This document shows, piece after piece, positions 3,198-56,524 of a DNA stretch of 64,000 nucleotides; the first letter of the stretch is position 1, and each line of letters starts with the position of its first letter. This DNA comes from Alphaproteobacteria bacterium (GTDB taxonomy: Bacteria; Pseudomonadota; Alphaproteobacteria; MPNO01; UBA830), in assembly GCA_965221485.1 (NCBI GenBank), contig OZ244893.1:1929129-1993128 (forward strand). Direction: 5' to 3'. Under the pieces are notes generated by a model. It had not been told where the DNA came from. It searched no databases and was given only the letters and a program-made list of their open reading frames with translations. The translations under genes and the position numbers were made by a program.

Positions 3198-3676
3198 GCA
3201 CTCCGGTAGACATTTCCCTGACCGTCAACGGCCGATCGCACCGCGCGACCGTCCCACCGCGCATGACACTCGTTGACTGCCTTCGTGATGTGTTGCACCT
3301 GACGGGGACCCATGTCGGTTGCGAACATGGAATTTGCGGCGCCTGTTCCGTACTGCTTGACGGCGAAGCCATTCGATCCTGCCTTGTTTTCGCTGTGCAG
3401 GCCGAGGGGCACGAAATCACGACTGTCGAGGGGCTGTCCCGGGACACGAACTCACTGGGGATCCTTCAGGATTCGTTCTGGGAGTGCCATGCCCTGCAAT
3501 GCGGCTACTGCACACCGGGCATGCTCATCGCCTGTCAGGAACTTCTCGCAGAAAACCCCGAGCCCGATGAACTGGAGATTCGGGAGAGCATCAGCGGCAA
3601 TTTGTGCCGCTGTACCGGGTATCAGCAGATCGTGGAAGCTGTGCAACTTGCCGCACAAAGGCTGAAGGATGAGTGA
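3194..3676 (+). CDS. Mo-hydroxylase [2Fe-2S] small subunit (CoxS-like)
   Basis: GCEHGICGAC and QCGYCTPG...CRCTGY cysteine motifs. ATGA overlap with the upstream gene. Confidence 0.95.
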   Translation: MSTPVDISLTVNGRSHRATVPPRMTLVDCLRDVLHLTGTHVGCEHGICGACSVLLDGEAIRSCLVFAVQAEGHEITTVEGLSRDTNSLGILQDSFWECHALQCGYCTPGMLIACQELLAENPEPDELEIRESISGNLCRCTGYQQIVEAVQLAAQRLKDE

Positions 3677-6092
3677 GATCGCCGCCAGACTTCCCAACTA
3701 TCGCTACGTGTCGCGCAAGCGGCGGGTCCGTGAAGATCGCCGCTTCGTAGCCGGCCAGGGCAAATTTGTTGCCGATGTGCATCTTCCCGGAATGAAACAT
3801 GTCGCCATCGTGCCAAGCCCGCACCCGCGGGCCCGCATTCTCGATATCGACACCCGGCAGGCCCGCATGATCAGCGGCGTTCATTACGTATTGACTGGAG
3901 AAGAACTCGCGGCCGCTACAAACTCGCTCTATCACGGCCTCGACATCCCCAATGTCGTCTGGTACCCGCTCGCAGTCGGCATGACACGTTACGCCGGAGA
4001 GTGGGTTGCGGCCGTGGTCGCTGACTCACGTCACGTGGCAGAGGATGCGGCGGAACTGGTCAGGGTCTCCTACGAAGCCCTTCCGGCAGCCGTGGATTCC
4101 GAACGGATGATTGAGCCGGATCAGCCGCTGGTGCATCCTGAACACGGCAGCAACATCCTGTTTCGCAAGACTTTCTCCTGGGGGCCGGTGGACGAGGATT
4201 TCGATTCCGCGCCCCATGCGATCTCCTATCGTGCCAGATGGGGACGTTCTTCAACGGTTCCGATCGAGACTTTCGGGGTCGTCGCTTCCTGGAGCGAGGC
4301 AACCGGAATTCTTGACGTATGGGCCTCGATCCAGATGCCGCAGTACCAGGATCAGATCGCCAACGCGCTCAAGATCCCCTTCAATGACATCCGGGTCCAT
4401 AACGATGTCGATGTTGGCGGTTCCTACGGCGTCAAGCGCGGGATCAAGCACACCGTCCTGGTCGGCTATCTCTCGCGCCATCTCGGGGTTCCTGTCCGCT
4501 TCATCGAGGACCGCCTCGACAACATGTCAGGCGGTGATGCCCACGGCCCCGATCGCATTTTCGACATGACGATGGCGTTCGACGATGACGGGGTAGTCCG
4601 ATCGATGAAAGTGAGAGCCCTCGATGATGTGGGAGCCTATCCGGGCCGCGCACCGCTGCAGCTCGGAAAGCCGATCACAGCGCTCTGCGGACCCTATCGC
4701 ATCAACTCGATCGAGTATGAGGCCATTTCGGTTACTTCGAACAAGACCGGACAGGTCCCGGTTCGGGGGTTCGGCCAGTCACCCACCAACTTCGCGATAG
4801 AGACCGGCATTGAACGGATCGCCCGGCATCTCGATATCGACCGTATCGAGATCCGGCGCCGCAATCTGGTGCGCAGCGACGACTTCCCGTGGACGATTCC
4901 AACCGGATCGGTCTACGACTCGGGCGACTACGAGGCCGTTCTCGATCAGGCACTGCGCTCGGCAAGAGGGAAGGACCTTGTGGCGCGGCGCGATGCGATT
5001 CGCAATCAGGGTGGTCTGGCAGGCCTCGGTATTGCCACCTGCCTGGAACCGGGCGGCGGCAACAATATCTTCGAATATCTCTTCAACCCCAAGCTCAGGA
5101 TCACGACCTTCGTTGAATCGATCCTCCTCAAGGTGGAACCGACCGGCGAAGTCACGGCAATGATCTGCACGACCACCTCCGGCCAGAGCCATGAAACACT
5201 CGTTGCCACCATTGCCGGCGAGGAACTGGAACGGGATCCGGATACGATCCGGGTCATACATGGCGATTCGCTGCAGGCCCTTCCGACACGGAGCCCAACG
5301 GCCAGCAGAATGGCCATCGTGCTTGGTACTGCAACGTCAAAGGCGGCACGTGAAATCCTTGACCGAATGACAGGGATTGCCGCCCACGATCTGGGTGTGG
5401 CGCTTACGGATATTGAATATTCGGACGGCGAATTCGCCGTCCGCGGTGTGCCCAAGAGATCATTGTCATGGGAAGAGGTAACCCATATCGCCCACAAGCA
5501 GTTTCACCGGATGCCGCCGGGACTTGAACCCGGTTTGCAGGCAGTGGCCGTCCAGCAGGTGCCCGGCGGGGGCCAGCTTCCCAACGAAAAAGAGCAGGTC
5601 GCCCTCTATCCCTGCTTCTCCTTTCAGGCTCACCTGCCGCTGGTCGAAATTGATCGCGCCACCGGCAAGGTCACCCTGCTCGACTACGTCATCGCCCATG
5701 ACTGCGGTACTGCAATCAATCCGGATATCGTGCGAGGCATGATCATCGGCGGCATCGGGCACGGCATTGGTGCTGCCCTTTACGAAAAATTCTCCTATGA
5801 CAATGACGGCCAGTTCCTCTCCGGTACCTTTGTCGATTACCTGCTGCCGTCGGCCCATGAAATTCCGGACGTGACGGATGTTGCCTTTTGCACCCCGTCA
5901 CCACTGACCTCGCTCGGACAGAAGGGGACCGGAGAAGGCGGCTATCTCGGTGCACCGGCTGCTGTTGCCTCAGCGGTGAACGATGCCCTGGCCCCCCTGG
6001 GCGCCTGGCTCGGAGAACTGCCGATGCGCGCCTCGGACATTGAACAGGCCATTCATGAGAGCAACGGCCACAGTCAGGACAAAAGCCCATGA
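3669..6092 (+). CDS. Mo-hydroxylase large subunit (xanthine dehydrogenase family; N-heteroaromatic hydroxylase-like)
   Basis: 807 aa. Motifs GGSYGVK, active-site loop VPVRGFG (4755-4775), GQSHET, DCGTAINP and KGTGEGG. Overlaps the small-subunit stop. Confidence 0.92.
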   Translation: MSEIAARLPNYRYVSRKRRVREDRRFVAGQGKFVADVHLPGMKHVAIVPSPHPRARILDIDTRQARMISGVHYVLTGEELAAATNSLYHGLDIPNVVWYPLAVGMTRYAGEWVAAVVADSRHVAEDAAELVRVSYEALPAAVDSERMIEPDQPLVHPEHGSNILFRKTFSWGPVDEDFDSAPHAISYRARWGRSSTVPIETFGVVASWSEATGILDVWASIQMPQYQDQIANALKIPFNDIRVHNDVDVGGSYGVKRGIKHTVLVGYLSRHLGVPVRFIEDRLDNMSGGDAHGPDRIFDMTMAFDDDGVVRSMKVRALDDVGAYPGRAPLQLGKPITALCGPYRINSIEYEAISVTSNKTGQVPVRGFGQSPTNFAIETGIERIARHLDIDRIEIRRRNLVRSDDFPWTIPTGSVYDSGDYEAVLDQALRSARGKDLVARRDAIRNQGGLAGLGIATCLEPGGGNNIFEYLFNPKLRITTFVESILLKVEPTGEVTAMICTTTSGQSHETLVATIAGEELERDPDTIRVIHGDSLQALPTRSPTASRMAIVLGTATSKAAREILDRMTGIAAHDLGVALTDIEYSDGEFAVRGVPKRSLSWEEVTHIAHKQFHRMPPGLEPGLQAVAVQQVPGGGQLPNEKEQVALYPCFSFQAHLPLVEIDRATGKVTLLDYVIAHDCGTAINPDIVRGMIIGGIGHGIGAALYEKFSYDNDGQFLSGTFVDYLLPSAHEIPDVTDVAFCTPSPLTSLGQKGTGEGGYLGAPAAVASAVNDALAPLGAWLGELPMRASDIEQAIHESNGHSQDKSP

Positions 6093-41957: not shown

Positions 41958-43184
41958 GTGCCGTCAGATCCATCCCTGATCGACGGGCGGTACGCCTGGT
42001 TCCGTCTCTCCGTCTCATTGCTCCTGGGAACAATCGGCAGTGTCGGTTTCTGGGCCGTAATCGTGGTCTTGCCCGATGTCCAGAAAGAGTTCGACGTAAC
42101 GCGCGCTGATGCATCGGTACCTTACACGGTGGCCATGATCAGCTTTGCACTCGGAAACGCGATTATTGGCCGCCTTGTCGACAGGATCGGTATCGTCGGT
42201 CCGCTGATCATAACTTCAGTGGTCCTCGGAATCGGCTTTATCGCGAGTGCTCAGGTGGACAGTCTCTGGTTATTCGCAGCGATCCACGGGGTTCTGATCG
42301 GAATGGGGACTGCCTGCACCTTTGGGCCCCTCATCGCCGACCTGTCCCACTGGTTCCGCGTCCGCCGCGGTATCGCAGTGGCGCTGACGGCTTGTGGCAA
42401 TTATCTTGGTGGCGCGGTCTGGCCTCTGACGATCAGACTGATCATCGATCATGGCGACTGGCGCACGGCCTATGTCGTGATTGGCATCGTGTGTATCGTC
42501 GTCATGACGCCGCTTGCCTTCCTGCTCAGGCGACCGCCTCCGATCGGAGGCCACGGCATCGGCGGCACTGCCGACGCCGGACCAAAACCGATTGCCCTGT
42601 CGCAGAAAAATCTTCTCATCCTCTTGTCTGTCGCGGGCGTAGGCTGTTGCGTAGCCATGTCAATGCCGCAGGTTCATATCGTCGCCTATTGCGGTGATCT
42701 TGGTTACGATGTGGCCCGTGGAGCAGAAATGCTTTCGCTTATGCTTGCCGCCGGAGCTGTGAGCCGGGTTGTCACCGGCCTTCTCGCCGATCGGATCGGT
42801 GGTGTGCGAACGCTGCTCCTGAGTTCAATCCTGCAAACAATCGGGCTGTCGCTGTTCCTGCCGTTCAACGGGCTGACGTCGCTCTACATCGTTTCGCTTG
42901 TATTCGGACTCTCCCAGGGGGGGATCGTACCCAGCTACGCCATTATTGCCCGGGAATACATGCCGGCGCGCATTGCAGGGCGACGTGTCGGGTTCCTGAT
43001 CATGGCAACAGTCATGGGAATGGCACTGGGCGGCTGGCTTTCAGGCTGGATATATGATCTGACCGCCTCCTATCAGGCGGCCTTTCTCAATGGAATCGCC
43101 TGGAATGTCCTGAACGCCGGGATTGTACTTCTGATCCTCATGCGCACTTTGAAATTAACACCGGCAGGGGTCCGGCCGGCTTGA
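41958..43184 (+). CDS. MFS transporter
   Basis: About 12 TM segments, GRLVDRIG, GLLADRIG and MSMPQVHIVA. Confidence 0.9.
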   Translation: MPSDPSLIDGRYAWFRLSVSLLLGTIGSVGFWAVIVVLPDVQKEFDVTRADASVPYTVAMISFALGNAIIGRLVDRIGIVGPLIITSVVLGIGFIASAQVDSLWLFAAIHGVLIGMGTACTFGPLIADLSHWFRVRRGIAVALTACGNYLGGAVWPLTIRLIIDHGDWRTAYVVIGIVCIVVMTPLAFLLRRPPPIGGHGIGGTADAGPKPIALSQKNLLILLSVAGVGCCVAMSMPQVHIVAYCGDLGYDVARGAEMLSLMLAAGAVSRVVTGLLADRIGGVRTLLLSSILQTIGLSLFLPFNGLTSLYIVSLVFGLSQGGIVPSYAIIAREYMPARIAGRRVGFLIMATVMGMALGGWLSGWIYDLTASYQAAFLNGIAWNVLNAGIVLLILMRTLKLTPAGVRPA

Positions 43185-43192
43185 ATCGCACT

Positions 43193-44275
43193 CTAGTGGA
43201 TTGATTCCAACTTTTGAAACCCGCGATTTCTTGCAGCGATGATATCTTTCGGGTCTGCGGTCCAGACGAAGGGTTTGTTTTCGGTGGCGTTGTGTTCGTC
43301 GATGAAGTTTTGGATGGCGTCGCGGAGTTCGCCGACGGAGCGAAAGACGCCATGTTTGAGGCGTCGCCGCGTGAGCTTGGCGAAGAAGCCTTCCACCGCA
43401 TTGAGCCACGAACAGGATGTTGGCGTGAAGTGGAAGGTCCAGCGCGGATGTTTTTCGAGCCAGGCCCGGACCGCCTTGTGTTTGTGGGTGGCATAGTTGT
43501 CGAGGATGGCATGGATTGGCTTGCCGGCTTCCACCGTGCGATCGATGCGATTGAGAAAGGTAATGAACTCTTCGTGCCGGTGTCGGGAGCTGTGCTGGGA
43601 AATCACCGTTCCGTCGAGGACATTGAGGGCGGCGAACAGGGTTGTTGTGCCATGACGCTTGTAATCATGGGTCATGGTGGCACAGCGGCCTTTCTTCATC
43701 GGCAGGCCGGGCTGGGTCCGGTCGAGGGCCTGAATTTGCGACTTCTCGTCGATCGACAGCACTGCCGCATGCGCCGGCGGGGCGACATAGAGCCCGACGA
43801 TGTCCGTCAGCTTCTCGACGAACGCCGGATCACGCGACAGTTTGAACTGACGCCAGCGATGCGGCGTCAGGCCGTGCGCCTGCCAGATCGCGTGAACCGT
43901 CGAAGCTGCCACCCCAACCCGCTGCGCCATCGCCCGCAGCGTCCAGTGTGTCGCCTCATGCGGCGGCGGCGTTTGTGTCAGACGCACAATCTCGGCAATC
44001 CGCTCCGGCGACAGCGGCGGCTTGCCCGGCGGACGCGTCTTGTCCCGCAAAAGCCCGTCAACACCCTCCTCCATGAACCGCTCCTGCCAGCGCCACACGC
44101 AAACCTTCGACTTCCCGCTCGCAGACATGATGGCATGGGTGCCCTTGCCATCCGCGCTCAAAAGGATGATCCGTGCCCGCCACACATGCTTCTGCGCGCT
44201 CTTCGGATCCCGGACAATCGCCTCCAGACGCCGACGGTCCTTGGGCCCCACGGTGAAGGAAACACCCGTGCGCAT
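43193..44275 (-). CDS. IS630-family transposase
   Basis: 360 aa uninterrupted. N-terminal HTH (RARIILL, THWT), DDE triad in SIDEKS / ILDNYATH / WLNAVEGFF. Its TAG stop is formed by the duplicated target. Confidence 0.95.
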   Translation of the reverse strand: MRTGVSFTVGPKDRRRLEAIVRDPKSAQKHVWRARIILLSADGKGTHAIMSASGKSKVCVWRWQERFMEEGVDGLLRDKTRPPGKPPLSPERIAEIVRLTQTPPPHEATHWTLRAMAQRVGVAASTVHAIWQAHGLTPHRWRQFKLSRDPAFVEKLTDIVGLYVAPPAHAAVLSIDEKSQIQALDRTQPGLPMKKGRCATMTHDYKRHGTTTLFAALNVLDGTVISQHSSRHRHEEFITFLNRIDRTVEAGKPIHAILDNYATHKHKAVRAWLEKHPRWTFHFTPTSCSWLNAVEGFFAKLTRRRLKHGVFRSVGELRDAIQNFIDEHNATENKPFVWTADPKDIIAARNRGFQKLESIH

Positions 44276-45732: not shown

Positions 45733-45909
45733 ATGGCTGACAGAACATCAACACAAGCTGACTGGGAAGAAATTGAAGAGGACGAACGGTCTATTCAAAA
45801 TGTGCCCAGTGAACGCAGTTGTCTTTCTTGCGGTGAAAAATTCGTCAGTGAAGGATGGCACAATCGGCTCTGCCTCCGCTGCCGCAAACGAAGTGGACCC
45901 GACTATTAG
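45733..45909 (+). CDS. Small Zn-ribbon-like protein (CxxC-x14-CxxC)
   Basis: RSCLSCGEKFVSEGWHNRLCLRC with an acidic N-terminus. GC-rich hairpin at 45914-45930 follows the stop. Alternative GTG start at 45727. Confidence 0.65.
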   Translation: MADRTSTQADWEEIEEDERSIQNVPSERSCLSCGEKFVSEGWHNRLCLRCRKRSGPDY

Positions 45910-46057
45910 GTCCGGGGTTGCTGCAGCCCCAAAAAACTTGACAAGAGTTTCAGATCCACCTGCATCGTGCCGGGGTTTCCCCGTCTGAGTCCTTGGCCTA
46001 CAGTCGAAGTTGCTGGTCATGCACAAGTGTTTCCTGATCGTCGCAGGAAAATCCCGG

Positions 46058-46375
46058 TTACGGGATACAGGAGGAGCATCGGCCTGGCACCGCCACGGCA
46101 CCGTTATTCCGAAGTGCGAAAACCGGGACGCCATGATTGGGGAGGTTCATGAGCATCAAGTGGTGGTCGGTGGTTCCGCTCGCCTTCCGGGCGAGAAGCC
46201 TGAGCCCGTGTCGCTTGCGGTAGTTTTCGTCGATGTGATCGAACAGGGCCGGGTCGGGCATGAGAGCGTCGACGCCTTTCAGCGGACCATTGCTGCCGGG
46301 GTGATAGGCGTCACGGCAGAACAGGAGGTCGAACACGCCGGCCGAAACCGGTTTGAGCTGCTCCAGCGGCGGCAA
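46058..46375 (-). pseudogene. Fragment of an unidentified protein-coding gene
   Basis: Codons are strongly G/C-ending from 46375 to about 46140, then composition changes. The opposite strand reads as a typical shadow ORF. FDLLFCRD weakly recalls SAM-methyltransferase motifs. Confidence 0.35.
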
Positions 46376-46430
46376 TGGCCCTCGGGTCGGTTTCTGGCCA
46401 TCATTTGACGAATTGCTGGACGGCGAGGCA

Positions 46431-47495
46431 ATGACCTATATCGACGACGACGCGTGGCGCTATTTCTGGCACCCTGTCTGCACCCTCGCGGAGCTGCGCG
46501 CAGAAGCGGACGACAACCGGCCGCTGGCCGCGACCCTGCTCGGCGAGCGCATCGCCGTCGCCGAAATCGCTGGTGCGGTCACAGTCTTCCCAGACCGCTG
46601 CCTGCACCGTTCCACACGACTGTCGATGGGCACGATCGAGGATGCCGGACTGCGCTGCGCCTATCACGGCTGGCTCTACGACGCCGACGGTGCCTGCATC
46701 GAGATTCCGGCCATGCCCGACTACCCGATTCCGCCCGATTGCCGACTCCGCGCCTTCGAAACCCGACTCGCCTACGATCTGGTCTGGGTGCGGCTGCAGC
46801 CCGGCGCAGGGACCGCCATTCCGGGCTGTCCGGCCTGGGACGACGATGCATTCCGCTGCATCCAGGGTGCCCCCTATACCTGGCCGACCTCGGCGGCGCG
46901 TCGGCTCGAGAATTTCGTCGATCTGTCGCATTTTCCGTTCGTGCATGATGGTAGTCTCGGCGACCGTCGCCTGACCCAAGTCCCCATCGCCAACATCGAC
47001 CGTATCGAAGGCGAGCTGCGCTTTCGCTTCGAACCGGCGCCGGGCATGGACCTGCCCGATATCGCCTTGATGGCGCCGACCGATTACCGCCTGTGGATGC
47101 CATTCTCGGTCAACCTTGAGTTCTTCTTTGCCGACGGCGAGCGCAGCCAGCTCTGGATGACCGCCTCGCCGGTGGAGCACGGGGTCTGTCGCAGTTTCTG
47201 GTTCACCAGCCGCACCGCTGATCGCCACGGCGACGATCGGCCACATCTCGAATTCCAGGATCTCGTGCTGGCCGAGGACCTGCCGGTGATCGAGGCACAG
47301 CACCCGCCCGGGATCCCGGCGCCAGCCGAGGAATATTCGGTACCTACCGACAAGGTTTCCATCGTTTATCGCCGGTGGCTACGCGAACTCGCGGAGGCTG
47401 CGGGCGAAGGCACTGAAGCGCTCGCCCGCAGCCTCGCTACGGTAAGGCTCGAATCGGACTCTCGCCGGGCGAACGTCCGATCCCAGGCGGACTGA
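46431..47495 (+). CDS. Rieske oxygenase, methylxanthine N-demethylase NdmA/NdmB-like
   Basis: RYFWHPVCT..EL, DRCLHRS.RLS.GT, CAYHGW, PY.W...A.RRLENFVDLSHFPFVH, MPFSVNLE, AED.PVIE.Q and DKVSIVYRRWLREL match recalled P. putida CBB5 NdmA/B segments (not aligned computationally). Confidence 0.8.
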   Translation: MTYIDDDAWRYFWHPVCTLAELRAEADDNRPLAATLLGERIAVAEIAGAVTVFPDRCLHRSTRLSMGTIEDAGLRCAYHGWLYDADGACIEIPAMPDYPIPPDCRLRAFETRLAYDLVWVRLQPGAGTAIPGCPAWDDDAFRCIQGAPYTWPTSAARRLENFVDLSHFPFVHDGSLGDRRLTQVPIANIDRIEGELRFRFEPAPGMDLPDIALMAPTDYRLWMPFSVNLEFFFADGERSQLWMTASPVEHGVCRSFWFTSRTADRHGDDRPHLEFQDLVLAEDLPVIEAQHPPGIPAPAEEYSVPTDKVSIVYRRWLRELAEAAGEGTEALARSLATVRLESDSRRANVRSQAD

Positions 47496-47508
47496 GCCGC
47501 CGCGCCGG

Positions 47509-48870
47509 TCAGGCCGCCTCGATATCCTCCGGCAGCACCACATTCAGGATCGCGGCCGCTACGCCCGCCACCACGATGCCCGAGACGAACAACGGCAGCG
47601 ACCATGCCGGCAGGACATCGCTCGGAAGCGGCCCGAAACCAGCCGCGCCGGCGAGCTGTTCGACCTGCCAGAGCCCCATCCCTAGACCAAGCGAGATTGC
47701 CGCAATCAGCATATTGCGGGTCGATAGTCCGGACCGAGCCACCAGTTTGAGCCCGGCCGCAACAATCAGACCGAACATCACAACCGCGGCACCGCCAAGC
47801 ACCGGCTCGGGCATCGCCGCGATCACCGCCGCGAGCTTCGGCACCAGGCCGCAGAGCAGCAGGAAGATCGCGCCGACCGTCACCACATGGCGACTCATCA
47901 CCCGGGTGAAGGACACCAGGCCCACATTCTGGCTGTAGGACGTGTTCGGCAGGCCGCCGAACAGCGCCACCACCGCCGAGCCCAGCCCGTCGGCCATGAT
48001 GCCGCCGCGCAGTTCCTTGTCGGTCGGCTCGCGGTCGGCGCCACCTGCGGTTACTCCTGAGATGTCGCCGACGGTCTCCACCGTAGTGATGAAAGCCATG
48101 ATGATCATCAGTCCTATCAGCCCGATCGCCGCCGGGGTCGAGAATTCGAGCCCGAACCATTGGTCCGGCAGCCCGACCCAATCGGCCTTGCCGATGGCCT
48201 CGACCTTTCGCGAGCTCATCATTCCGAACGGGATCGCCACCAGGTAGCCGATCACCAGCCCAATAAACACCGCCGAGGTCGACCAGATCCCACGCCCGTA
48301 TCGGCGGAGTACAAGGATCGCGATGATCACGAACAGGGCCATCGCCCAGTTCCCGGCGTCGCCGAACCCGGCATCCTTGCAAAACCCGGCCGGGTAGGCG
48401 CCACAACCGGCCGAATATTTTATGCCGACCGGCAGCAGGGTGAAGCCGATGGTCATGACCACGACGCCAGATACAAGGCTCGGGATGAAACGTCGGATCT
48501 GAGGTATGAAATACCCCAGAATCATCTGAAACAGCCCGCCCACGAGGCTCGCGCCGAACACCGCTGCGAGACTTGCACCACCCTTGATCGCGGCAGTGAG
48601 AATCCCGACATAGGCGAAGCTCGTACCCTGAACGATCGGTAAGCGTGCACCGATCGGCCCGATGCCGATTGTCTGTATCAGCGTCGCTACGCCAGCAGCC
48701 AGAAGGGCGATCTGTACCAGCACCGTGACGTATTGCGGCCCGGCCGCCAGTGCAATGATCAGCGGGACCGTGATGTTGCCGGCGAACATCGCGAGCACAT
48801 GCTGGATGCCGAGAGGGATTGCCTCGCCAATCGGCGGTTTATAGTCTGGAGAATTATGTTGTTCGTTCAT
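47509..48870 (-). CDS. NCS2/NAT nucleobase permease, xanthine/urate type
   Basis: GIQHVLAMF, LPIVQGTSF, and NAT signature SQNVGLVSFTRV (Gln form, typical of xanthine/urate carriers). Confidence 0.92.
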   Translation of the reverse strand: MNEQHNSPDYKPPIGEAIPLGIQHVLAMFAGNITVPLIIALAAGPQYVTVLVQIALLAAGVATLIQTIGIGPIGARLPIVQGTSFAYVGILTAAIKGGASLAAVFGASLVGGLFQMILGYFIPQIRRFIPSLVSGVVVMTIGFTLLPVGIKYSAGCGAYPAGFCKDAGFGDAGNWAMALFVIIAILVLRRYGRGIWSTSAVFIGLVIGYLVAIPFGMMSSRKVEAIGKADWVGLPDQWFGLEFSTPAAIGLIGLMIIMAFITTVETVGDISGVTAGGADREPTDKELRGGIMADGLGSAVVALFGGLPNTSYSQNVGLVSFTRVMSRHVVTVGAIFLLLCGLVPKLAAVIAAMPEPVLGGAAVVMFGLIVAAGLKLVARSGLSTRNMLIAAISLGLGMGLWQVEQLAGAAGFGPLPSDVLPAWSLPLFVSGIVVAGVAAAILNVVLPEDIEAA

Positions 48871-48988
48871 TTCGCTGCCCTACTGCGTTTCGTTATTGAT
48901 GATGGAACGTACTCCGCCCCAGGCTTTAGCCGCAGGGACAAATCCTTCACCGCGCGGGGTCTGGCCGCGGACGCGAGAGCTCCGCGTT

Positions 48989-49004
48989 ATTATACCCTAT
49001 AGGG
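48989..49004 (-). promoter_or_regulatory. Perfect -10 (TATAAT) abutting palindrome CCCTATAGGG upstream of the NCS2 gene
   Basis: Minus-strand TATAAT at 48994-48989, about 120 nt before the ATG. A 10-bp palindrome at 48995-49004 fills the spacer. The -35 is weak. Confidence 0.5.
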
Positions 49005-49316
49005 GCCCACACAGAATCGCCTTTTTTCGAGACCGAGGCATGTTCAAGAGTTGTGATAGGAACGATTTTCGGACCAGTGGTTAACCGAGTAGTCCGTTTT
49101 GAGGGGGCTGTAGAGGAGCTGCAGCGGCATCGGTAGTGGATTCCAGCTGTTTGCAGGTACCCGGAACAGCTGTCCTGTGGCCCAGCTGACTTTTGATTTG
49201 TTCTGTTTCGAGACCTGCTCAGCGTTCACTCGCGTTCCGGCCCGCATAGTCGCTCAATGGCTTCTATGCGGCCCTTTGACGCCGCAGTGCTTCAGTCGAT
49301 TTTGTTCCCTCCATGA

Positions 49317-50423
49317 ACCGCAACATCTGCTACCAACCGGAGTGACAGTGGTCGGGCGGGGTTCGTATCCGCCGGGAAGACGCGCCTTTTCAAGACGCAC
49401 GAGATCACTATGGGGTATCGGAAACAAGGCACCACTCTGGACCTTTCCTCCAGCGGGCGAGGCTTGCAACAGACGCTGTTGATTGTCGCCTACATGTACG
49501 CCCACCCCGGCGCAATCATTCTTCTGGATGAGCCGGATGCCCATCTCGAAAATTTGCGACAAAGTCAGACTGATGCATTGATCTCCAAGGTCGCTTCCGA
49601 CAGTGAAAGTCAGATCATTGCAGCGAGCTATTGGCAAGTTCTTCTCAACGAAGCTGCCGAAAAGGGCGTGGTCATTGCCTTCGTCGAAACCCCGCACCGC
49701 ATAGAGGGCGGGCAGAGCCAGGCGCGCAAGGCTTTGGCTGAAGTTGGCTTTGACCAATATTATCAGGGCGAACAGACCGGATAGGTGTTGTGTGTCGAAG
49801 GTCCAACCGATCTGGCCATATTGCAGGCGTTCGGCCGAAGGTTCTGCAAGGAAGACACCGTCAGTAGACCTTTCGTGCACTATGTCGGAAACCAGCCGCG
49901 AGCGGCCGCGCAGCACTATTTTGGCCTCAAGGAATCACTGCCTGGCCGACAGGGCGTCTCCCTGTTTGATCGGCTTCAGGGCGAGGTACCTGACAGTCCG
50001 GCGTTGAACCACCTTGTCTGGCAGCGAAGGGAAATCGAGAACTATTTCTGTACCGAAGCAACCCTTAAAGCCTATGCTCGCGCATCTGCATCGGATGACA
50101 CAAATATGCCCCTGTTTGTCTGGTCCGGGAGGGACAAGCGCCTCTCTGCGATGAGAGAAGCGATTTCCGAGGTCAAAAAAGCTCTTGAAACTCTGGGCAA
50201 AGACTCTCCATGGGATCCCGATCTCAAGGTAAGCGACGAGTTCCTCAAACCGTTGTTCAGGTCATATTTTGCAAAAATGGGCATACCAAACCTTATGAAC
50301 AAGAAGAATTTTTACGAACTCGCGGACCATGTCCCGGATCACGCGACAGATCCGGAAATCAGCCTCAAGCTGGACGAAATCGTAAGGGTTGCCAATCTTG
50401 CAACACCCGCAGTCTTCAGCTGA
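49317..50423 (+). pseudogene. Decayed AAA/ABC-ATPase + TOPRIM-like nuclease gene (OLD/AAA_21-type, defence-like)
   Basis: LSSSGRG signature and Walker B LLDEPDAHLE. In-frame TAG at 49782-84 directly before VLCVEGPTD (TOPRIM), then WQRREIENY. H-loop reads ASYWQ. No Walker A N-terminus is present. Confidence 0.8.
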
Positions 50424-50602
50424 CCGCCACGAAAATTGGCAACGAGCCCGGCCTTCTGCCGAGCCCGGGGAAGCCCGGCCAACGAGTGACGATGTCCGAT
50501 CCACAACAGTGGCTCCCTGTGCATCCCCGTCCGCCACAACAATCCCTGACGGGCCCTCAAAAGCGAGATGAACCTGCCAACAGGCTGGTTACGTGGGATG
50601 CT

Positions 50603-51943
50603 TTAACGGAGGCCGGATTCCGTTGACGGATTCAAACTGACGTCCCATTCCACTTCCAGATTCTGCACACCGCGGAACGTGAGGGTCGGGATATAGCGGA
50701 ACGTCTGTTCCGGTTTCAGTCGCATATGCGGGAGCCTGCGGATCAGTTCCTCCAGAATGACCTTCATTTCCATCCGCGCAAGGGGCGCGCCCATGCAGAA
50801 ATGGGCTCCGTGACCCAGACCCAGATGACGCCGGGCATTGTGTCGCGAAGGATCAAATTCCTCCGGGTTCGCAAATGCATCGGGATCACGGTTCGCCGAG
50901 CCCATCATGACAAGGATTTTGCTCCCCCTGGAAATCGGAACAGTGCCAATCCGGGTATCCCGTGTCGCGATCCTCCGCCAGGCAAAGATTGAACTGTCAT
51001 ATCGAAGGATCTCTTCAACGGCATTGGGAACCAGGGAAGGATCAGCAACCAGTCGTTCCCACTTGTCCCGCTCACTCAGCAGCTTCCTCAGCCCGTTAGC
51101 AGAAGCCTGGGTCGTCGTCTCGTGACCCGCAAACTGCATCAGAAACATGACGTTACGAAGGTAGTTGATCGAAAACCGTGTCGGGTCCTCCCGGTACAAA
51201 CGCACCAGATCGCCGAGATAGTTGTCTCCGGGACATTCAAGCGCATCGTCGACCAGTTTGACTGTGAAATCCCAGGACGCACCCATGTCAGCCATCATGG
51301 CAACCTGCTCCTCGTCACTGGGGAAACCCCAGTTGACGATGGCCCGTTTTGATCCCAGCGTCTTCACCATAATCGCCTTGTCGTCAGGCGCCCCCAGAAA
51401 GATAAAGATCGCCAGCGCGGGAACCTCATACAGCATCTGGCCGACAAGTTCGGCCCTGCCATCATCAATGAAACGATCAATGTAACGCGTGACGATCTTG
51501 CGTACCTGCGGTTCAACCTCATTCACCCGCTTGGGTGTGAACGCGTCACCGAAGATTTTCCGGTGCTTCCTGTGCGTCGCTGCTTCTTCGTCGACGAGCG
51601 ATGGTTCGATCTCGATGTTGAGAGTGTCACGGACTCTCGCCGCTTCGGGACACAGCGCCCTGACCGGATGCCGGGCAACGGCAGGTGAGAACGTTTCCGG
51701 ATCGCGAAACACACTCACACAATCGGCGTATTTCATCACGACCCAGCATTTCATTTCCGGACTGTAAAATACCGGTTCGGCTTCACGCGTTTCCGAGAAA
51801 AAACGATATGGGTCGGCGACATAGTCTTCCGAAAACGGCACAAAGGCTTTACCGGCAGCGGTGACCGGGCATTCGGGAGTGTTTTCCTGAGTCTCTCCTT
51901 GAGGATCAGACTGGAACATCCCGTATGAGTGTTTGCTGCTCAC
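50603..51943 (-). CDS. Cytochrome P450, stand-alone CYP116-like heme domain
   Basis: CPV...F.PF..Y..DPY, EPVFYSP, I-helix FAGHETT, EEILR (ExxR), AWRR.ATRDT and heme loop GHGAHFCMG. GTG 51943 has a GGAGG RBS; ATG 51958 is an alternative. Confidence 0.93.
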   Translation of the reverse strand: MSSKHSYGMFQSDPQGETQENTPECPVTAAGKAFVPFSEDYVADPYRFFSETREAEPVFYSPEMKCWVVMKYADCVSVFRDPETFSPAVARHPVRALCPEAARVRDTLNIEIEPSLVDEEAATHRKHRKIFGDAFTPKRVNEVEPQVRKIVTRYIDRFIDDGRAELVGQMLYEVPALAIFIFLGAPDDKAIMVKTLGSKRAIVNWGFPSDEEQVAMMADMGASWDFTVKLVDDALECPGDNYLGDLVRLYREDPTRFSINYLRNVMFLMQFAGHETTTQASANGLRKLLSERDKWERLVADPSLVPNAVEEILRYDSSIFAWRRIATRDTRIGTVPISRGSKILVMMGSANRDPDAFANPEEFDPSRHNARRHLGLGHGAHFCMGAPLARMEMKVILEELIRRLPHMRLKPEQTFRYIPTLTFRGVQNLEVEWDVSLNPSTESGLR

Positions 51944-52166
51944 ATCGCCTCCAATCATGACTTCAGAAATACGGGCTGAGGCACTTTATCCACCGATCCG
52001 TGCAAAACACAGTCGACTCATTCAGCGGGCCCTGCTGTCGTCCGTCCGGATCTCTCCGTCAACCCAAAAGACGGAACCGGCAACCGTTCGAGCTGCCCGG
52101 AAACGCGGCAACGCCGGCCGTGTCTTTCGCATGTTCTCATGTCATGCGGTCGATCACGTTTCGACT

Positions 52167-56448: not shown

Positions 56449-56524
56449 TGGTGGAGCCGAGGGGAGTCGAACCCCTGACCTCAGCATTGCGAACGCTGCG
56501 CTCTCCCAACTGAGCTACGGCCCC
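56449..56524 (-). tRNA. tRNA-Ala(CGC)
   Basis: 76 nt GGGGCCGTAGCTCAGTTGGGAGAGCGCAGCGTTCGCAATGCTGAGGTCAGGGGTTCGACTCCCCTCGGCTCCACCA. G3:U70 pair, anticodon CGC, encoded CCA. Confidence 0.98.

Follow-up and report, generated by a model that had tools for sequence, protein, structure and literature searches.

Two convergent genes in a 64,000 nt stretch of the genome of an alphaproteobacterium (contig OZ244893.1, positions 1,929,129–1,993,128; hereafter, the window) encode a Rieske non-haem-iron monooxygenase related to the caffeine N-demethylases NdmA and NdmB, and a xanthine/urate-type permease of the NCS2 family (Table 1). Our analyses suggest that a natural methylated oxopurine, and not caffeine specifically, is taken up and N-demethylated by this pair; we put the probability of this reading at roughly 0.6. 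From homology, from the pairing of the two genes and from their genomic context we infer which reaction takes place, on which substrate and with which electron donor, and where that substrate comes from in nature. Neither the oxygenase subfamily nor its pairing with a permease is described in the literature that we searched, which covered sponge symbionts with methylxanthine or Ndm, and XanQ with 7-methylxanthine.

Homology and Phylogeny of the Oxygenase

The oxygenase contains the Pfam domains Rieske (1e-16) and VanA_C (1.9e-17) and was not claimed by any NCBIfam model; its frame is open already from a TTG at position 46,353, upstream of the ATG used here. In phmmer comparisons with the PDB it aligned over residues 7–343 with NdmB (6ICL, 5.5e-81) and NdmA (6ICK, 1.4e-79), far above other solved Rieske enzymes, the next matches being the saxitoxin hydroxylases SxtT/SxtDIOX (1e-34) and the dicamba demethylase DdmC (3e-10). 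The likeness to both Ndm enzymes, which an initial annotation of the window had proposed without database searches, extends over the full length of the protein, with approximately 45% identity to each of NdmA and NdmB, which are 51% identical to each other.

A search of a library of 1.8 billion cluster representatives retrieved only 193 proteins at E ≤ 1e-30, with a single representative (P0126, of a 50%-identity cluster) standing for both NdmA and NdmB. Two trees, a quick one of 91 rows and a bootstrapped IQ-TREE one of 52 rows, recovered a strongly supported Ndm-like clade (Shimodaira–Hasegawa-like approximate likelihood ratio test, SH-aLRT, 100 in the former; ultrafast bootstrap/SH-aLRT 100/99 in the latter). 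Within it, the orthologs of the window protein form a clade of their own (100/100), as do NdmA, NdmB and P0126 (100/100), which are sister to a group with P0121 and P0041 (95/86); further subclades are an actinobacterial group with Iamia sp. SCSIO 61187 (100/99) and a small set with P0033 and P0036. Six VanA-type paralogs from the same genome fell as an outgroup, separated by a branch 2.4 substitutions per site long, and the trees did not show the clustering with vanillate or dicamba O-demethylases that the initial annotation had contemplated. These results identify the oxygenase as a true homolog of NdmA and NdmB, representing an uncharacterized subfamily of the Ndm-like clade.

The ligands of the Rieske cluster (C57, H59, C76, and H79) and of the mononuclear iron (H167, H172, and D283) are kept here and in 30/30 orthologs, and the bridging aspartate is D164. 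In NdmA, caffeine is contacted by F168, F174, F223, L248, N282, V285, and F286, and a swap between N282/F286 and Q/L converts the enzyme from an N1- to an N3-demethylase (bioRxiv 10.1101/2021.12.17.472166). The corresponding pocket residues of the window protein are F162, F168, T217, L241, Q276, V279, and L280: four are identical to those of NdmA, two (Q276 and L280) are in the NdmB state and one differs from both enzymes, with six of the seven matching NdmB. The N/F state was found only in the NdmA lineage, where it is derived, and the Q/L state is common to every environmental subclade.

Compared with NdmB of Pseudomonas putida CBB5, the window protein has the same Rieske plus VanA_C architecture and a similar length, aligns end to end, and retains all cluster and iron ligands as well as the equivalents of F168, F174, L248, and V285 and of the NdmB-specific Q289/L293 (Q276/L280 here). 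It differs in belonging to a separate subfamily, in the threonine at the position equivalent to F223, in its pairing with an NCS2 permease and in the lack of NdmD from its genome, with free Rieske ferredoxins in its relatives; likewise, the hosts are uncultured marine bacteria instead of a soil pseudomonad. Fold and ligands are also those of NdmA, which differs in having N282/F286 instead of Q/L. VanA/VanB and DdmC share the Rieske and VanA_C domains, but DdmC is a distant match, the VanA-type paralogs are an outgroup and the genome has no VanB-type reductase.

Homology of the Permease

The permease matches Xan_ur_permease from Pfam (4.5e-83) and UapA in the PDB (3.6e-33); it scores 303 with the NCS2 superfamily model, above the cut-off of 292, and 380.4 bits with TIGR03173 (pbuX), below the trusted cut-off of 414.15. 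Its motifs are GIQH at position 21 (in transmembrane segment TM1), QGTSFA at 81, ETVGD at 265 (TM8), and QNVGLVSFTR at 314–323, the latter being a NAT motif of the Gln type that fits the signature Q-N-x-G-x4-T-[R/K/G], in agreement with its earlier assignment to the xanthine/urate carriers. It shares with XanQ, PbuX, and UapA the Xan_ur_permease domain, the Gln-Asn NAT motif, the TM8 Glu/Asp pair and the TM1 QH motif, and is set apart from them by its score with TIGR03173 and by three substitutions of the paired lineage (M177L, W238H, and L368M). This is the sole NCS2 gene in the genome.

These three substitutions are the only fixed differences between permeases paired with an oxygenase and unpaired permeases. 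A 57% identical homolog from a genome of the same order clusters with xdhA, xdhB, and genes for a PuuE-like allantoinase and a deaminase, and the four binding-site motifs are identical across paired, unpaired and xdh-linked permeases. The permease is of an ordinary xanthine/urate type; the proposal of a methylated substrate rests on the oxygenase. Of the monomethylated xanthines, 1- and 3-methylxanthine are ligands of Escherichia coli XanQ and 7- and 9-methylxanthine are not, in which case tolerance to some N-methyl groups would require no special adaptation.

Conservation and Distribution of the Pair

The initial annotation considered the pair as not expected in this lineage; instead, it behaves as a conserved module of an oxygenase subfamily that occurs in at least 27 species-level metagenome-assembled genomes. 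Oxygenases 71–79% identical to that of the window were found at 27 loci of species-level relatives in our genome collection, and all the hosts are metagenome-assembled, 23 of them Alphaproteobacteria and four Gammaproteobacteria. The permease (81–89% identical) is encoded convergently and directly downstream of the oxygenase in 18 of these loci, with a 55-aa remnant in a 19th; paired loci total 21 once those from other assemblies are added. The flanks differ among loci, and clustering of the open reading frames (ORFs) from 28 loci found no neighbor besides the permease common to more than eight of them. Additionally, the divergences of the two proteins correlate over the 21 paired loci (Mantel r = 0.89, p = 0.0005), and the paired permeases group together as a single clade (SH-aLRT 97). 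Purifying selection acts on both genes, with ratios of nonsynonymous to synonymous substitution rates of 0.11–0.21 for the oxygenase and of 0.03–0.11 for the permease. One of the relatives (L013, MPMX bin65) is a symbiont of the sponge Aplysina aerophoba (PMC5649159), and another bears the name Spongia_Bin9.

One assembly of the P0015 locus (L094:9118–10476) has the permease split into called genes of 198 and 230 aa, and the sister assembly L093 has an intact one; the split is either an assembly error or a recent decay.

Purine Genes around Ndm-Like Oxygenases and in the Host Genome

The gene contexts of the sister subclades (Table 1) back the idea, already put forward in the initial annotation, of a methylated purine as substrate. 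In the P0044 cluster, a different NCS2 permease gene (product 41% identical, with a Gln-type motif) overlaps by 8 bp the gene for an oxygenase of the Ndm-like clade; this clade has thus recruited an NCS2 permease at least twice. The two GcvT-like genes of this cluster point to a possible tetrahydrofolate-linked capture of one-carbon units, and the cluster as a whole is a candidate pathway for polymethylated purines. In the ndmCDE-like set of the P0121 locus, no reductase is fused to the Rieske part. Purine metabolism is the dominant, although not the sole, theme in the contexts of the Ndm-like clade.

The Ndm-clade oxygenase of Iamia sp. SCSIO 61187, an actinobacterium available in culture, shares 55% identity with the window protein, and a luciferase-like monooxygenase gene lies nearby. 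This strain offers a tractable organism for the study of methylpurine or methylnucleoside catabolism.

The genome analyzed here, a single contig of 4.48 Mb with 59.1% GC, has a purine catabolic cluster of its own (Table 1), in which XdhB scores 1141 bits with TIGR02965 (cut-off, 850). The pathway from xanthine to allantoin is complete, and xanthine produced by demethylation would therefore have an obvious fate. The search for a PF01014 uricase found none in the genome. A role of the oxygenase as a replacement for a missing urate oxidase was considered and rejected, since the xdh cluster contains a gene for a PuuD-type urate oxidase.

Electron Supply

NdmB converts 3-methylxanthine to xanthine, and both NdmA and NdmB require NdmD (PMC4408171). 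The initial annotation had noticed no ndmD in the window, and our searches with PF00175 and PF00111 detected no NdmD-type reductase in the window or in the 4.48-Mb genome, although NdmC and NdmE homologs were not specifically searched for; the same searches found no VanB-type reductase in the genome. A BenC-type reductase that carries a Fer2 domain at its N-terminus (Fer2-FAD-NAD) is the single NAD_binding_1 protein; it is encoded 133 kb away (C1:1842045–1843061) within an alpha/alpha/beta ring-hydroxylating dioxygenase (RHD) operon.

A gene for a Rieske-type ferredoxin (approximately 105 aa) lies directly 3′ of the oxygenase gene in five loci without an intact permease (L020, L022, L027, L028, and L033) and another adjoins the pair in L091/L092; more distant Rieske ferredoxins (approximately 39–46% identical) are encoded directly upstream of the oxygenase in L024 and L035. 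Pfam scans of the flanks of these ferredoxin-linked loci returned nothing relevant. The window genome encodes a homolog of the relatives' ferredoxins adjoining a ferredoxin reductase gene (Table 1), 1.9 Mb from the pair. This recurrent neighborhood points to a free Rieske ferredoxin as the probable electron donor, together with a ferredoxin reductase whose gene lies elsewhere, and not to the NdmD that, according to the initial annotation, Ndm enzymes need.

Biphenyl dioxygenase systems of the BphA3/BphA4 type combine a Rieske-type ferredoxin and a glutathione-reductase-type reductase with alpha/beta dioxygenases. The candidate donors resemble them in that the ferredoxin and the Pyr_redox_2/Reductase_C protein are encoded side by side, but the terminal enzyme here is an alpha-only monooxygenase of the VanA_C type, and the donor genes are far from it. 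There is also a parallel with NdmCDE, formed by the Rieske-less NdmC, the Rieske-bearing reductase NdmD and the GST (glutathione S-transferase)-like NdmE, in that a Rieske cluster on a separate polypeptide may deliver the electrons; in contrast, the window oxygenase keeps its own Rieske domain and there is no fused FMN/NADH/[2Fe-2S] reductase. No GST-like gene was seen among the genes called from approximately 4 kb upstream to 10 kb downstream of the oxygenase, in what was not a dedicated search.

The genome contains 26 Rieske-oxygenase loci, with one FNR-type reductase and one Rieske ferredoxin/reductase pair found so far. Most of these oxygenases must share donors encoded elsewhere.

Proposed Function and Alternative Explanations

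The pair would act as a self-contained funnel for an oxopurine base with an N-methyl group; the most likely substrate would be a monomethylxanthine (e.g., 3-, 1-, or 7-methylxanthine) or a close natural analog. The NCS2 permease would bring this base in by cation symport, and the Rieske oxygenase would then hydroxylate the N-methyl carbon at its mononuclear iron, generating a carbinolamine that would yield formaldehyde and the unmethylated purine (xanthine). Electrons would pass from NAD(P)H to the ferredoxin reductase, then to the Rieske ferredoxin and finally to the oxygenase, and xanthine would enter the catabolic cluster of the genome or be salvaged. A module with a single enzyme fits a monomethylated substrate better than caffeine. 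Deamination of the modified bases 1- and 7-methylguanine (m1G and m7G) produces 1- and 7-methylxanthine, and that of 1-methyladenine (m1A) produces 1-methylhypoxanthine; these are dead-end bases that one demethylase could rescue. The substrate could come from RNA-turnover products of the host or the community, or from methylpurine alkaloids of sponges and ascidians. These invertebrates contain 1-methyladenine, herbipoline, 1,3- and 3,7-dimethylisoguanine, 1,9-dimethylhypoxanthine, theophylline, and 3-methylxanthine (PMC5793054). No uptake genes for methylxanthines, or linked to Ndm enzymes, were known as of a 2015 review (PMC4408171).

Alternatively, the pair could be a cassette for the degradation of caffeine, theobromine, or theophylline, under plant-derived or anthropogenic selection, as in P. 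putida CBB5. The homology to NdmA and NdmB, the NdmB-like Q/L pocket and the JGI annotation of one homolog as methylxanthine N1-demethylase would agree with this, and a sponge and a gorgonian are reported sources of theophylline and caffeine (PMC5793054). However, we deem this very improbable, because the conversion of caffeine to xanthine is beyond one enzyme and we found one demethylase only, with no NdmA/B/C set, no NdmD, and no frmAB. Likewise, the subfamily occurs only in uncultured Alpha- and Gammaproteobacteria of marine origin and forms a separate clade with a changed pocket residue. Nothing favors the caffeine-type pollutants that the initial annotation had offered as an option.

Several observations weigh against an N-demethylation module for natural oxopurines. 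The two genes are convergent and, consequently, are not co-transcribed, and no regulator, reductase or formaldehyde-detoxifying gene is attached to the pair. Permease orthologs with 80% identity occur without the oxygenase in seven genomes of the same family; the permease shows no specialization for methylated bases in its sequence, and may simply carry xanthine or urate. The NdmA/B-like identity claimed initially stands for the wider Ndm-like clade, but not for the clade of NdmA and NdmB itself, outside of which the window protein branches, and the order of the remaining subclades was not resolved. The position of NdmA F223 is occupied by threonine (T217) in 30/30 orthologs, making the pocket unlike those of both characterized enzymes, and the presence of Q/L in every environmental subclade indicates that this state is ancestral and says little on which methyl position is attacked. 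Lastly, two homologs lie in non-purine contexts: P0041 is next to the ring-cleavage genes LigAB and PrpF and to Amidohydro_2 and RraA-like genes, and P0036 (52% identical) is flanked by two creatininase-family genes and may have a different N-methyl heterocycle as its substrate.

The latter two contexts would suit a non-purine substrate, with the oxygenase acting as a methoxy-aromatic O-demethylase or as a creatinine- or betaine-like N-demethylase and the permease being a mere co-transferred general importer of xanthine. The permease orthologs without oxygenase, the absence of an operon and the JGI label of vanillate O-demethylase on many relatives point in the same direction. Nevertheless, we find this explanation unlikely: the pairing recurs in no fewer than 21 loci whose flanks are unrelated, the two proteins co-diverge, the paired permeases are monophyletic, and a separate NCS2 lineage joined independently, in an operon, another oxygenase of the Ndm-like clade; additionally, the VanA-type paralogs are very distant.

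A hydroxylation of ring or side-chain C-H bonds in an unmethylated or otherwise modified purine, similar to the reactions of SxtT and GxtA and involving no N-demethylation, also seems rather improbable, by a slightly greater degree. SxtT and SxtDIOX are the next solved relatives after NdmA and NdmB, the permease carries the motifs of a plain xanthine/urate carrier, the change from F223 to threonine would make the pocket more polar, and TauD-family genes adjoin the pair in L090 and the oxygenase in Iamia. Yet the similarity to NdmA and NdmB is far above that to SxtT and the methyl-positioning residues are kept, and for the oxidation of xanthine and urate the genome already has XdhAB and the PuuD-type urate oxidase. 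The GcvT-like genes of L111, as possible one-carbon traps, fit demethylation.

If the preferred reading, N-demethylation of an imported oxopurine, is extended further, the pair could be the core of an unrecognized methylpurine-scavenging system that recurs in marine bacteria not yet cultured, sponge symbionts among them. This system would consist of a three-component Rieske N-demethylase, with a free ferredoxin replacing NdmD, and a xanthine-type permease; NdmA and NdmB would then be a small recent offshoot of a much larger environmental family of demethylases for natural methylpurines, and NdmD would derive from the fusion of a Rieske ferredoxin and a reductase. We offer this broader scheme tentatively and consider it more doubtful than not. 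If it were true, methylated purines of the host would supply its symbionts with carbon, nitrogen, and purine rings; these purines could be released in the degradation of m7G, m1G, and m1A, or be alkaloids of sponges (e.g., theophylline and dimethylisoguanines).

Experimental knowledge of purine N-demethylation in bacteria comes only from a few soil isolates that degrade caffeine. Our analyses place NdmA and NdmB in a wider clade, in which most subclades, uncultured apart from Iamia sp. SCSIO 61187, lie beside genes for purine transporters, deaminases, nucleoside hydrolases and xanthine dehydrogenases. They thus provide a testable route for the fate of methylated purines in the sea and in sponge holobionts; these compounds are dead ends of RNA and DNA turnover and also occur abundantly as alkaloids of invertebrates. 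The clade further offers enzymes with new pocket residues and a new electron-transfer partner for making defined methylxanthines.

Acquisition and Insertion Site

The oxygenase is absent from 39 of 40 related genomes, and the sole carrier is a bin from the same genus with a 78% identical protein on a different contig. Synteny with four genomes of the same genus (G001–G004) places the pair within a strain-specific inserted block (Table 1). In G001 and G003, the major facilitator superfamily (MFS) gene found at 41,958–43,184 in the window is followed by a tRNA gene, a short piece matching positions 45,802–45,893, and the RHD beta gene (52,167 here); in G002, the MFS gene is followed by an HbpS-like gene and then by the RHD beta gene. 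This strain-specific insertion and the absence from most relatives agree with the acquired cassette proposed in the initial annotation, and indicate that the oxygenase-permease module was acquired horizontally.

The convergent layout and the GC-richness of the pair, the latter first judged by eye, were borne out by the ORF coordinates and by composition. The pair has 64.3% GC, compared to 48–56% in its immediate flanks and to a genome mean of 59.1% (standard deviation 2.3% in windows of this size), corresponding to the 97th percentile; the GC content at third codon positions is 77%, vs. 60–69% in neighboring genes. In high-GC bins of the relatives the GC of the pair matches that of its flanks, whereas in bins of 56–59% GC (L026 and L030) it stands out as here, a pattern that fits an import from a GC-richer donor.

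The IS630-family element of the window has multiple copies in relatives, and the MFS and HbpS-like genes that flank it here are adjacent in G002; this copy marks the spot as a site of repeated insertion. The tRNA-Ala(CGC) gene, which in the window lies beyond the block, is located in G001 and G003 between the MFS gene and the RHD cassette, the spot of the insertions here.

Features of the Window, the Genome and Related Loci

Table 1. Location of the features discussed. Plain positions refer to the window, those preceded by C1 to the genome, and those preceded by L to loci of other organisms.
Feature	Location	Strand	Size or content	Basis
Ndm-like Rieske non-haem-iron monooxygenase gene	46431..47495	+	354 aa from ATG	Pfam, PDB matches, trees, residue mapping
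Spacer between the two convergent stop codons	47496..47508	.	13 bp	ORF coordinates
NCS2/NAT nucleobase:cation symporter gene, xanthine/urate type	47509..48870	-	453 aa	Pfam, motif comparison
Strain-specific inserted block holding the pair	~45900..52165	.		Synteny vs. same-genus genomes G001–G004
IS630-family transposase gene, between MFS and HbpS-like genes	43193..44275	-		NCBIfam transpos_IS630, 1e-85
Short dispersed repeats in the block	~49036-49390		~100–170 bp, 70–80% identical	blastn
AAA_21/SMC-like ATPase fragment	49410-49784		124 aa, truncated	Pfam
P450 gene in the block	50603-51958
tRNA-Ala(CGC) gene	56449-56524
Ferredoxin reductase gene, glutathione-reductase type, adjoining the ferredoxin gene	C1:42035-43261		Pyr_redox_2 + Reductase_C
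Rieske ferredoxin gene	C1:43277-43600		107 aa, 45–57% identical to ferredoxins of relatives
Purine catabolic cluster	C1:1.456-1.469 Mb		Bmp-type ABC nucleoside transporter, XdhB, XdhA, PuuD-type urate oxidase, HIU (5-hydroxyisourate) hydrolase, PuuE-like allantoinase, OHCU (2-oxo-4-hydroxy-4-carboxy-5-ureidoimidazoline) decarboxylase
Clusters of Iamia sp. SCSIO 61187 (CP050948.1) and an Acidimicrobiia contig	L099:2427-15014 (Iamia)		Two adenosine/adenine deaminases, nucleoside hydrolase, phosphoribosyltransferase, xanthine dehydrogenase (XDH)-like molybdoenzyme, adenine-deaminase-type amidohydrolases, TauD, two distant Rieske/VanA_C paralogs
P0121 locus (metagenome contig)	L109:457-6205		Adenosine deaminase, LysR, Rieske-less VanA_C protein (277 aa, NdmC-like), stand-alone 248-aa Rieske protein, GST (NdmE-like)
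P0044 cluster	L111/L112:1-17068		NCS2 permease, Ndm-clade oxygenase, two GcvT-like genes, adenosine deaminase, AraC, two MFS, TonB receptor, four more Rieske/VanA_C genes (five in total)
P0036 locus	L095/L096:5636-10725		Creatininase-family genes, FAD_binding_4 oxidase, TetR, TonB receptor, MFS
P0033 neighbors			Amidohydrolase, Vut_1 (YhhQ-like) transporter

A scan for promoters and terminators at the pair, spacer included, yielded nothing beyond the expectation from shuffled sequences, and the small ORFs 5′ of the pair (44.9–46.4 kb) have no family match in Pfam. Downstream of the pair, the repeats at 49,036–49,390 recur at approximately eight other sites in the genome and at many sites in G002, and may be similar to miniature inverted-repeat transposable elements. 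The AAA_21 fragment is followed by a 212-aa ORF without family match (region 49,410–50,423), and DNA homologous to this region occurs at unrelated sites in same-genus genomes. A shared AAA_21 module was rejected, as the AAA_21 gene and 206-aa ORF accompanying the pair in L091/L092 are not homologous to the local fragment and the 212-aa ORF.

The molybdenum hydroxylase family of this genome is unusually large. The XdhB model matched 47 times, corresponding to approximately 40 separate molybdopterin large-subunit genes of the XDH/CoxL family (e.g., at 3669–6092 and 2–2113 in the window), only one of which is a true XdhB, together with more than 20 CoxS-like [2Fe-2S] small subunits.

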